From positions 1 to 62,309 of IMG/VR virus record IMGVR_UViG_3300022929_000020: a DNA stretch of 62,309 bases. The stretch is one strand, 5' to 3'. Source of the stretch: a virus (taxonomy: Duplodnaviria > Caudoviricetes). Numbering within the stretch: position 1 is the first letter of the stretch; every line of letters starts with the position of its first letter. The translations under genes and the position numbers were made by a program. Below the pieces are notes generated by a model, which searched no databases, had not been told where the DNA came from, and saw only the letters and a program-made list of their open reading frames with translations. Of the stretch, positions 14,338-16,291 are shown one piece after another.

Positions 14338-14606
14338 AGAAAAAGATCGATCAGTATACAATGTCAGATGAAGAACTAAAAGCTTCTGCTTGGTGTGTTC
14401 GAAACAAGATATGTATAACTGCAAGAGAGTCTGGATATAGAACTGGTAGATACTATATTGACATAGAAAAAGGAGATTATCCTAATAGAGTATTGATAGG
14501 TTCTACAGAAGAGACTTATAGATTTCCAGAGCAACAGAAAAAATTAGCTGAATATAAAATGTATTATTACAAAAAATATGCGGACAAAGTTCAAGAACGC
14601 AAGTGA
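14328..14606 (+). CDS. Hypothetical protein
   Basis: Overlapping ORF. Confidence 0.7.
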   Translation: MGVKKKIDQYTMSDEELKASAWCVRNKICITARESGYRTGRYYIDIEKGDYPNRVLIGSTEETYRFPEQQKKLAEYKMYYYKKYADKVQERK

Positions 14607-15222
14607 AGCATTTGATTATTTATATATCAAGATTAAAAACACTGGTATAGATTTTGATAATACTAAAGCTTTATTTAATGTAGGCTTCTATCTAAATAGG
14701 CCACAAGAAACATACATAAGATCTGGCTTCAGAAAATGGAGCAAAGAGTATGCACAAGCCGAATGGCAATGGTATTTGTCACACGATCGAAGAGTCAAAA
14801 CTCTTGGAGAAATATACGGCAAAGTACCTGACATATGGAATATGATGGCCGACGAAAACGGTGAAGTCAACTCTAATTATGGTTGGCAGTGGCAAAGAGA
14901 AGGCCAATTAGATAAGGTTATAGAAAAACTAAAATCAAATCCTAACACTAGACACGCTGCAATAAGTATATACGATGGTAAAGAGATAAACAAATACAGC
15001 AAAGACACACCATGTACTTACGCAGTTCAATTCACAATCATAGATGAGAAATTAAATATGTCTGTGTATATGAGATCTAACGACTTATGGTTCGGCTTTT
15101 GCAATGACCAATACCAATTTAGCATGCTGCAACAAAGAGTTGCTACAGAGCTAGGCATAGAGGTCGGATGGTATTATCATCACGCTCACAATATGCACTT
15201 ATACAAAGACAAAATAAAATAA
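14578..15222 (+). CDS. Thymidylate-synthase-family enzyme, T4 gp42-like dCMP (hydroxy)methyltransferase
   Basis: GEVNSNYGW, PCT, MRSNDLWFGFCND; Asp at the position of E. coli ThyA N177. Confidence 0.75.
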   Translation: MRTKFKNASEAFDYLYIKIKNTGIDFDNTKALFNVGFYLNRPQETYIRSGFRKWSKEYAQAEWQWYLSHDRRVKTLGEIYGKVPDIWNMMADENGEVNSNYGWQWQREGQLDKVIEKLKSNPNTRHAAISIYDGKEINKYSKDTPCTYAVQFTIIDEKLNMSVYMRSNDLWFGFCNDQYQFSMLQQRVATELGIEVGWYYHHAHNMHLYKDKIK

Positions 15223-16005
15223 TGTATTATCTATATCACATACCCGGTAATAAAATCGGAGTAACACAAAACCCAGAAAAAAGAATAACCAAAGAACAAG
15301 GCTACAAAGAAGGCGAGTATGAAATACTAGTAAAGACAGACGACATAGATATGGTATCTGATCTTGAATTAAGATTACAACAAGCCTTTGGCTATCGAAA
15401 AGACATGAAGCCTTACAAAAAAGTGATTAAAAAAAGAATGAAAATAAACGTAACAGAACAAACCACAACATTCCCATGCCCATTAAATAAACTAAAAGGA
15501 AACTTAATGGATAACCTAGGTTTAAAATGGAAAACACAGTTTGGATTATTTAAACTGTCAGAGAAAACAGTATCTTGGATCGTAGCAAATTCAAAGGTAT
15601 CAATGTATAACCCAGAGCGTTGCTACATATATAACAAAGCTTACTTCGAAGCATTTGCTCCTGACAAGTATGATATTAATGGAGCTAAGTCAGTAGTTGA
15701 TATGCCTAAACCTGCTATCTTTGATGCGATCAGGATGTGGGCAGAAGATCGAGGCATTTACGATAAAGGCGATGAAGACTCAATACATAAAGCTATCTGA
15801 AGAGTTTGGTGAGCTTGCTAAAGCTCTGCTAAAAGATGATCAACCAGAAGTTATAGATGCTATAGGCGATATGGTTGTTGTACTTACGAACTTAGCACAT
15901 CAGCGTGGCGTAAACATTGAAGCTTGTATTCAATCAGCATACGACGTTATTAGTAAAAGAAAAGGTAAAATGGTAAACGGAACTTTTGTAAAAGATGAAG
16001 AGTAA
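15222..16005 (+). CDS. GIY-YIG-like N-terminus fused to MazG-like NTP pyrophosphohydrolase (frameshift near 15775)
   Basis: MYYLYH..KIGVT...KR; IRMWAEDRGIYDKGD continues in another frame as KTQYIKLSEEFGEL...DAIGD...RKGKMVNGTFVK. Confidence 0.75.
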
Positions 16006-16291
16006 TTATAAAATCAAAACAGAAGATACCATTGTGCAAGCAGTCATCGAAAAGATGGACAGACGCAGCGAGTTTGGTATGAAGAAGTATGGCAAGGCCA
16101 TGATCGAAGAAGTACAAACAGGAGAAAAAGATCTGCATGCTTTTATAGTTGACGTACAAGAAGAACTAATGGATGCGTTACTATATTTAGAGTCAGCTAA
16201 AATGTGCTTACAACTAGAAGTTAACAAAGCAATGCTGAGTCAAACAGATCCATTAAAGTTTGCTAAACGTCATGAAAAACAAGTCCTTTAA
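15995..16291 (+). CDS. Small all-alpha NTP-pyrophosphatase-like protein
   Basis: R...GMKKYG...QEELMDALLY motif. Confidence 0.55.
   Translation: MKSNYKIKTEDTIVQAVIEKMDRRSEFGMKKYGKAMIEEVQTGEKDLHAFIVDVQEELMDALLYLESAKMCLQLEVNKAMLSQTDPLKFAKRHEKQVL

Follow-up and report, generated by a model that had tools for sequence, protein, structure and literature searches.

The stretch of DNA analyzed here (the window) is the whole of the IMG/VR virus record IMGVR_UViG_3300022929_000020 (Duplodnaviria; Caudoviricetes), which has a length of 62,309 bp and a completeness of 97% by CheckV. The + strand carries early, replication, and nucleotide functions over 1 to 20 kb, and the remainder of the genome carries late genes (portal, terminase, virion proteins, and lysis) on the - strand. 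The closest relative of the primase-helicase comes from Cellulophaga phage phi10:1 (40% identity), with Tenacibaculum and Flavobacterium phages next, and the stretch is present in contigs from salt-marsh and seawater runs, which indicates that the source is an uncultured marine phage, probably one that infects Flavobacteriia. The genes in question belong to a tight + strand operon with the order primase-helicase, 92-amino-acid (aa) open reading frame (ORF), thymidylate synthase (TS) homolog, two-domain gene, 98-aa ORF (S98), DUF1064 protein, and the small and large subunits of ribonucleotide reductase (RNR) (Table 1). A first-pass annotation, made from the sequence alone, had read the TS homolog and the genes behind it as a probable cytosine modification module, in which a deoxycytidylate (dCMP) hydroxymethylase-like enzyme is followed by two nucleoside triphosphate pyrophosphatase (NTP-PPase)-like genes. 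The following analysis supports a predicted dCMP hydroxymethylase with a single pyrophosphatase domain in the fusion gene behind it. Of the 413 IMG/VR stretches matched, 411 code for relatives.

Table 1. Coordinates of the cassette and of related genes in the window
Feature	Position	Strand	Evidence or remark
Primase-helicase	12625-14337	+	
TS homolog, 214 aa, predicted dCMP hydroxymethylase (5hmdCMP synthase)	14578-15222	+	PF00303, PHROG, PDB, alignment
Two-domain fusion gene (N-domain + MazG/PRA-PH)	15222-16005	+	Two pieces in window record
Fusion piece 1: N-domain (weakly T5orf172/GIY-YIG-like), second alpha/beta subdomain, linker, first MazG helix	15222-15800	+	
Fusion piece 2: MazG/PRA-PH core helices	15772-16005	+	+1 frame in window record
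2-nt gap breaking the fusion gene	15773/15774		
S98, conserved helical protein, 98 aa	15995-16291	+	
dCMP deaminase, 144 aa, HAE + PCxxC zinc motifs, accessory in lineage	6246-6680	+	PF00383
RNR small subunit	17107-18066	+	PF00268, E 2.3e-58
RNR large subunit	18313-19932	+	PF02867, E 3.9e-95

The TS homolog is the sole PF00303 match of the whole record (E 7.6e-29; 101 bits against a cutoff of 24.3), and it also matches PHROG thymidylate synthase families, with E values down to 5.8e-43. Its best solved relative is the T4 dCMP hydroxymethylase (1b49; E 1.2e-21), behind which rank thymidylate synthases and the CMP hydroxymethylase MilA. The ORF and the strings that the first-pass annotation quoted from it, including NSNYGW, are present as described, and a MAFFT alignment with T4 gp42 and Escherichia coli ThyA places Asp177 at the position of ThyA Asn177, as had been proposed. 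In alignment with the T4 enzyme, Cys146 corresponds to T4 Cys148, Glu62 to T4 E60, and the motif ending in ND to that of T4. The further key residues are the Ser-x-Tyr pair in NSNYGW, Arg125, Asp143, Thr147, Arg166, Ser167, Asp169, His207, and Tyr209.

Several of these positions have been linked with substrate and product in the available text of published studies. The change of Asn177 to Asp gives dCMP specificity (PMC8670742; PMC13326640); hydroxymethylases are marked by an acidic residue (Asp or Glu) at the third position ahead of the catalytic Cys (Cys-3), in combination with a Ser-x-Tyr pair, and T4 D145N makes no 5-hydroxymethyl-dCMP (5hmdCMP) (PMC6400193); Asp169 changed to Asn marks 5-hydroxy-dCMP synthases (PMC13326640); and Ser167/Arg126 versus Ala/Lys separates enzymes acting on deoxyribonucleotides from those acting on ribonucleotides (PMC5175136). 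The window enzyme has Asp at Cys-3 (DTPC) and NSNYGW, which are equivalent to T4 D145, S94, and Y96, as well as Ser167 and Arg125, which align with the published Ser167/Arg126 pair. It retains Asp169, where RB69 gp48 has Asn in the same alignment. Controls from annotated records were included in this alignment, and at positions 143/169/177 they read D/D/D in T4 gp42, E/N/D in RB69 gp48 (5-hydroxy-dCMP), N/D/D in the TS of Xanthomonas phage Xp12 (5-methyl-dCMP), and L/D/N in E. coli ThyA, so that all four displayed their published pattern; the window enzyme reads D/D/D. Among the best 80 loci in IMG/VR there are 68 distinct orthologs, and all 68 keep DTPCT, RSND, and Asp177. The window enzyme thus has the full set of published signature residues, a signature that sorts the characterized controls correctly, and the assignment as a dCMP hydroxymethylase-like protein holds. 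The protein is a short form that ends 5 residues past Tyr209, about 50 aa before the C terminus of ThyA and about 32 aa before that of gp42.

A role as an ordinary thymidylate synthase that provides the dTMP of an AT-rich genome is hardly credible. The enzyme is a PF00303 member, and RNR and dCMP deaminase genes accompany it as in many phages with ordinary DNA; however, Asp, Asp, and Thr replace the canonical Asn177, Leu143, and His147, the C-terminal closing segment is absent, and no dihydrofolate reductase (DHFR) was found in six-frame searches of the whole record with working positive controls, a scope that applies to the searches for absent functions below, except that those for the T4 glucosyltransferase families had no positive control.

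A dCMP methylase as in Xp12, giving a 5-methylcytosine genome in which the deaminase turns part of the 5-methyl-dC nucleotides to thymidylate, requires closer consideration. Asp177 alone cannot split methylases from hydroxymethylases, 5-methyl-dC was made by five of the seven Asp177 homologs tested according to the accessible part of a preprint (bioRxiv 10.1101/2024.12.05.627091), and the window encodes a deaminase, with no further thymidylate synthase found. Against this, Cys-3 is Asp as in T4, whereas the Xp12 enzyme has Asn there and groups with E. coli ThyA (support 98/97), and the loss of hydroxymethylation in T4 D145N, as far as the text of that study goes (PMC6400193), ties this residue to the hydroxymethyl product. 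In addition, reductive methylation yields dihydrofolate, and the DHFR gene that adjoins the TS gene in Xp12 has no counterpart here; the enzyme lacks a C-terminal tail of the ThyA/Xp12 kind; and three of five complete relatives are without the deaminase. The methylase marks (non-acidic Cys-3, ThyA-like tail, and DHFR partner), which are drawn from a single reference enzyme, are therefore all lacking in the window, and a methylase is distinctly unlikely. The first-pass annotation had left the product as 5-hydroxymethylcytosine (5hmC) or 5-methylcytosine; the acidic Cys-3 (Asn in Xp12 and Leu in ThyA), the lack of DHFR, and the lack of a ThyA-like tail favor the hydroxymethyl over the methyl form, and we infer 5hmdCMP as the product.

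In a tree of 20 rows, comprising 10 IMG/VR orthologs and 10 named rows, with the 58 other IMG/VR orthologs left out, the window clade and its sister, gene 00032 of Bacteroides phage BF486P2, form a group of their own (support 86/91). The BF486P2 gene is the closest cultured homolog (44 to 45% identity; 226 aa) and reads D/D/D at the three diagnostic positions. BF486P2 contains two TS homologs (6168-6929 and 9001-9681) that lie 2 kb apart with a dUTPase between them, and both have Asp at 143/169/177; the first is very divergent, with Leu at the Glu58 position and Lys-Leu before the Cys. The next-nearest cultured homologs are those of Enterococcus phage VPE25 and Lactobacillus phage ATCCB, which are both D/D/D and annotated as thymidylate synthase genes. 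An annotated beta-glucosyltransferase gene lies within one gene after the TS gene in both VPE25 (2995-5353 in locus L087, with a dUTPase between) and ATCCB (295-1236 in locus L089), which suggests that these phages of Gram-positive hosts probably carry glucosylated 5hmC. A literature search, with subscription journals outside its scope, found no paper on 5hmC in Cellulophaga or Flavobacterium phages or on the DNA chemistry of BF486P2.

The start codon of the second gene of the cassette overlaps the stop codon of the TS homolog (TAATG). In the window record, its reading frame is broken: an ORF at 15168-15800, with its real start at 15222, reaches the first MazG helix, and the other helices follow in the +1 frame. 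A 93%-identical relative (L003) has one unbroken ORF of 261 aa with two more letters at the site of the gap, and 57 of 61 distinct orthologs have lengths of 245 to 285 aa, which was taken as the range of the intact fusion. In four public runs (X1 to X4), all contigs that span the site read GC behind 15773 or CC behind 15774, and the contig depth with the extra letters is 7.8 plus 5.2 of 13 in X1, 9.03 of 9.03 in X2, 14.9 of 14.9 in X3, and 2.3 of 2.3 in X4. Four of the contigs across the site are otherwise identical to the window, and the run with the best coverage of the stretch may be the one from which the window derives, which makes the contig evidence less than fully independent. A programmed frameshift or a split MazG gene was rejected on the basis of the unbroken L003 ORF, the ortholog lengths, and the contigs with two extra letters. 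The 2-nt gap in the deposited contig probably stems from misassembly or represents a minor variant, and since it is confined to the window record, the gene is best described as a conserved N-domain/MazG fusion of about 261 aa. A MazG domain alone occurs in a few relatives (L014, L021, and L022).

The MazG domain makes up the C-terminal third of the fusion gene. In the window it matches PF01503 (E 4.6e-07) and PF03819 (E 1.7e-05), both above the cutoffs, and PHROG MazG-like families with E values down to 5.2e-28, and it contains the EExGE and DxxGD metal-binding motifs; both Pfam families are matched by 42 of 42 fusion orthologs. An AlphaFold model of the L003 fusion ortholog (predicted local distance difference test score [pLDDT], 85.5) aligns by VIA-align with 1vmg (Z 9.4; root mean square deviation of 2.5 A over 81 residues) and with the MazG-like enzyme of phage S-2L (7ody; Z 9.0). 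Foldseek places the dCTP pyrophosphatase RS21-C6/DCTPP1 among the top chains, the E value being about 0.01 since no more than one third of the query is aligned. The MazG-like gene that had been placed directly after the TS homolog is thus a PRA-PH/MazG pyrophosphatase in the same operon, as claimed, but it is a domain of a larger gene and not a gene of its own. From its context and the published association of PF01503, the domain is most likely a dCTPase that would convert dCTP to dCMP.

The N-domain of the fusion (about 150 to 160 aa) starts with a beta-beta-alpha-beta-alpha arrangement in the model and has invariant Tyr2, Tyr5, Arg21, and Glu49 in the alignment. PF10544 (T5orf172) is matched by 9 of 42 orthologs (best E 5.4e-05) and PF13455 (MUG113) by 4 of 42, and the window copy falls below the cutoffs for both (E 0.035 and 0.026, respectively). 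GIY-YIG proteins of BFVD appear only at E values of 0.02 to 0.03, and a PDB profile search gave no GIY-YIG chain; the PDB Foldseek and VIA lists for the fusion are filled by the MazG domain. Because these Pfam and BFVD matches are few and weak and none came from the PDB profile search, membership of the N-domain in the GIY-YIG superfamily is plausible at most.

S98 was the second gene to which the first-pass annotation had given an NTP-PPase function, on the basis of an EELMD-type motif, and this function found no support in the analysis. No NTP-PPase Pfam family was matched by any of 44 members, with a weak EncFtn-like match in 14 of the 44; hhalign gave a probability of 0.4% for the alignment of S98 with the fusion; and a PDB profile search reached DCTPP1 only at E values of 1.1 to 1.2, over one acidic helix. 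S98 was modeled with moderate confidence (pLDDT 75) as a helical hairpin, for which Foldseek gave a best E of 2.9 and VIA a best Z of 6.3 among unrelated helical proteins, a non-specific result. A second MazG-like enzyme is consequently not supported. S98 is a conserved, unnamed helical protein: at least 7,998 of the 8,000 scored candidates in its alignment search had E values of ≤0.001, the 120 matches listed include no Pfam domain or useful name, and Arg24, Gly28, Tyr32-Gly33, Gln55-Glu56-Glu57, Asp60, and Tyr64 are invariant. In three relatives (L079, L080, and L082), an extra ORF of about 73 aa lies between the fusion gene and the S98 homolog (at about 5430-5672 in L079 and L082).

The three genes of the cassette are kept together. 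The N-domain gene and S98 are in place at 68 of 73 TS loci with enough downstream sequence, and when an S98 of 40% identity served as the seed for another set, the TS homolog, the N-domain, and MazG were found at 70 of 80 loci; the 10 that lack the TS homolog have less than 1,400 nt of contig upstream of S98. Because the loci come from related phages, the linkage of S98 with the TS homolog is only suggestive of joint function. The same synteny bears on whether 5hmC is further decorated by proteins that were not recognized (S98, the fusion N-domain, or unnamed early ORFs), giving a hypermodified cytosine not yet described. The hydroxyl group is decorated in most known 5hmC phages, and S98 and the N-domain are strictly syntenic with the TS homolog and have no assigned function. 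Such decoration is nevertheless unlikely, as no glycosyltransferase, carbamoyltransferase, or kinase family was found (the searches for T4 glucosyltransferases lacking a positive control), the fold matches of the small helical S98 (98 aa) include nothing enzyme-like, and synteny within one phage lineage is weak evidence for joint function.

The dCMP deaminase that had been reported at 6246 is confirmed by its PF00383 match (E 5.8e-27). Its best solved relative is 4p9c, a short dCMP deaminase from a cyanophage (E 3.1e-32), followed by T4 Cd (1vq2; E 3.1e-25); the zinc motifs are conserved in both alignments, and the bifunctional PBCV-1 type (7fh4; E 2.6e-18) ranks below 4p9c. The gene lies 8 kb from the TS gene, and a PF00383 gene is present in only two of five complete relatives that keep the TS-fusion-S98 block, so the deaminase is accessory in this lineage. 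This argues against the deamination of C5-modified nucleotides as the reason for the cassette, a route that the first-pass annotation had offered as one of two explanations and in which 5hmdCMP or its triphosphate would be mainly an intermediate that the deaminase converts to 5-hydroxymethyl-dUMP or -dUTP, or a methyl product to dTMP, so that the base modified or supplied would be a thymine analog and not a cytosine analog. Phage enzymes of the dCMP deaminase family that act on 5-methyl-dCTP and 5-hydroxymethyl-dCTP are described in the accessible part of the preprint (bioRxiv 10.1101/2024.12.05.627091), and the window has a deaminase, with ThyA and ThyX not found. However, the published pairs in that text lie within 3 kb of each other, and the best solved relative of the window deaminase is an ordinary short phage enzyme, 4p9c outscoring 7fh4, the closest structure to the 5-methylcytosine-selective enzyme of the preprint. 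Together with the patchy presence of the gene among relatives, these results make deamination a very unlikely rationale. Separately, a 70,691-bp record (G002; relative L007) shows the same deaminase match at both ends (1314-1628 and 65079-65393), and because of this recurrence the record suggests either a terminal redundancy of about 5 to 6 kb or a circularly permuted assembly counted twice.

The searches for other nucleotide functions agree with the earlier listing of absences, in that no ordinary ThyA, ThyX, DHFR, glycosyltransferase of the GT1 or GT2 type, or deoxynucleoside monophosphate (dNMP) kinase was found, and carbamoyltransferase was likewise not found. The T4 alpha- and beta-glucosyltransferase families also gave no match, but these searches had no positive control, so this result is not evidence of absence. 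Among plausible genes, Walker A motifs are confined to those for the primase-helicase and PhoH and to a domain resembling AAA_33/Zeta-toxin (28203-30005 on the - strand; E 1.1e-13 and 4.1e-13), which lies inside a 2,692-aa ORF of the late operon (24024-32102). Otherwise, the late operon contains only structural, lysis, or unnamed proteins in PHROG scans of 20 ORFs and Pfam scans of 5 further unnamed ORFs. Immediately downstream of the terminase gene, a 181-aa ORF (50610-51155, - strand) has a match to a PHROG with the annotation co-chaperonin GroES (E 3.9e-15). In the early region, the DUF1064 protein of the operon has a Holliday junction resolvase family as its top PHROG match, and the RNR subunits provide context as a source of deoxynucleotides in the same + strand block. 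A 151-aa ORF (8549-9004, + strand) gives a weak, subthreshold match to PF03013, a pyrimidine dimer DNA glycosylase family (E 3.3e-4; 21.4 bits versus a cutoff of 23), which is of possible interest in a phage predicted to have modified cytosine.

Taken together, the cassette is best interpreted, with a rough probability of 0.65, as a stripped-down form of T4-type cytosine replacement before replication, and the T4-type hydroxymethylase hallmarks of the TS homolog suggest that the phage DNA probably contains modified cytosine. In the proposed pathway, the TS homolog would bind dCMP via Asp177 and add the methylene of CH2-tetrahydrofolate at C5 via Cys146. A water molecule held by Asp143 and the Ser and Tyr residues would then hydrate the exocyclic methylene, replacing hydride transfer, to give 5hmdCMP; since hydroxymethylation makes no dihydrofolate, no DHFR would be needed. 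The translationally coupled MazG/PRA-PH domain would convert dCTP to dCMP, which would both feed the hydroxymethylase and keep plain dCTP from the DNA. The 5hmdCMP would be phosphorylated by host kinases or by a kinase not recognized here, and its triphosphate would be incorporated by a polymerase that is not visibly phage encoded (PolA having been searched). Where present, the deaminase would provide dUMP for host ThyA, as T4 Cd does. In this scheme, the fold families, the diagnostic residues with their conservation, and the synteny are what was shown, and from these we infer the product, the dCTPase specificity, the kinase step, and 5hmC, either bare or decorated, in the virion DNA. A more specific proposal, which is speculative and doubtful, is that the trio of short hydroxymethylase, GIY-YIG-like/MazG fusion, and S98 is a minimal cassette that is self-sufficient with host kinases and polymerase, in which the N-domain may be a nuclease on cytosine-containing (host) DNA, a functional analog of T4 EndoII physically linked to the dCTPase, and S98 may be a new accessory factor.

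Several results weigh against T4-type replacement. With regard to the enzyme, the C-terminal region of gp42 is absent and T4 Arg220 has no counterpart, and the rule that separates methyl from hydroxymethyl products rests here on one characterized methylase (Xp12). No cultured member of the lineage was found, the best phage match being 44% identical. The window clade does not join T4 gp42 in the tree; because the deep forks are weak (76/86) and the branches long, descent from a gp42-like ancestor is not demonstrated. Many phages whose DNA is ordinary also encode MazG domains, and sequence does not reveal which substrate such a domain uses. What the model chiefly lacks is a step that takes 5hmdCMP to its triphosphate: T4 requires gp1 for dNMP phosphorylation, thymidylate kinase and dNK searches of the window gave no match, and the sole kinase-like P-loop found, that of the AAA_33/Zeta-toxin domain, is not of the dNMP kinase type. 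In addition, no family A polymerase (PolA, the only polymerase family searched) was detected.

If T4-type replacement holds, a widespread lineage of 60- to 70-kb marine and salt-marsh phages (411 IMG/VR stretches), with probable Flavobacteriia hosts, would replace cytosine with 5hmC using far fewer phage genes than T4, with no phage kinase, glucosyltransferase, or recognizable polymerase (again with PolA as the family searched). Cytosine modification is a known anti-restriction strategy, and its presence in this lineage would bear on the evasion of restriction and CRISPR at sea, as well as on the biases that arise when virome libraries are prepared and nanopore bases are called, and the cassette might serve as a small set of genes for the in vivo production of 5hmC DNA. 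Both the principle and the association of these domains are in print already, so what is gained is a well-delimited test case and not a new mechanism.

Both the module and the deamination route have precedents in print, as far as the available text of the sources goes (PMC8670742; bioRxiv 10.1101/2024.12.05.627091). In MetaGPA, TS homologs with Asp177 and a residue other than His at 147, PF01503, PF00383/PF14437, and the ligase families PF01068/PF14743 co-occur on cytosine-modified metavirome contigs (Yang et al., 2021, eLife; PMC8670742), and all six families are present in the window. However, MetaGPA, as described there, offers domain statistics and does not treat the window lineage, and the enzyme validated is a 5hmC carbamoyltransferase, which was not found in the window. 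The preprint describes a phage deaminase that turns C5-modified dC nucleotides into dTTP or 5-hydroxymethyl-dUTP and removes the need for a second thymidylate synthase (bioRxiv 10.1101/2024.12.05.627091). Xp12 resembles the window in having an Asp177 TS homolog and a dCMP deaminase family gene without a second thymidylate synthase; in its TS, however, Cys-3 is Asn and the C-terminal tail is long, and its deaminase and DHFR genes are adjacent, whereas the window enzyme has an acidic Cys-3, no DHFR was found, and the deaminase gene lies far away and can be missing from relatives. The 5-hydroxy-dCMP synthases of RB69 and DLP3, in the accessible part of their description (Lee et al., 2026, NAR; PMC13326640), share Asp177 and the acidic residue at 143, but their diagnostic D169N is absent in the window, which has RSND where RB69 has RSQN. 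BF486P2 gene 00032, annotated as a deoxycytidylate 5-hydroxymethyltransferase, is likewise a short D/D/D form in the sister clade, but it resides in a different genome with a second TS homolog and a dUTPase nearby.

The T4 pathway consists of the dCMP hydroxymethylase gp42, the dCTPase gp56, the dNMP kinase gp1, the deaminase Cd, and glucosyltransferases. The window shares with it a TS-fold enzyme with equivalents of T4 Glu60, Ser94/Tyr96, Asp145, Cys148, Asp171, and Asp179, an all-alpha pyrophosphatase, and a dCMP deaminase. It differs in that its enzyme has 214 aa versus 246 aa, is about 31% identical, and is not grouped with gp42; in that no gp1-type kinase, glucosyltransferase, Td/Frd, or family A DNA polymerase was found in the window; and in that its pyrophosphatase is of the MazG type and carries an additional domain. 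The four-helix MazG fold and the EExxE/DxxD motifs are shared with cyanophage S-2L MazZ and mammalian DCTPP1, but they are single-domain proteins, whereas the window domain is fused to an N-terminal region of about 160 aa. With no visible kinase, transferase, or polymerase (of which PolA was searched), what is particular here is the lineage-wide combination of a short predicted hydroxymethylase, an N-domain/MazG fusion, and S98.

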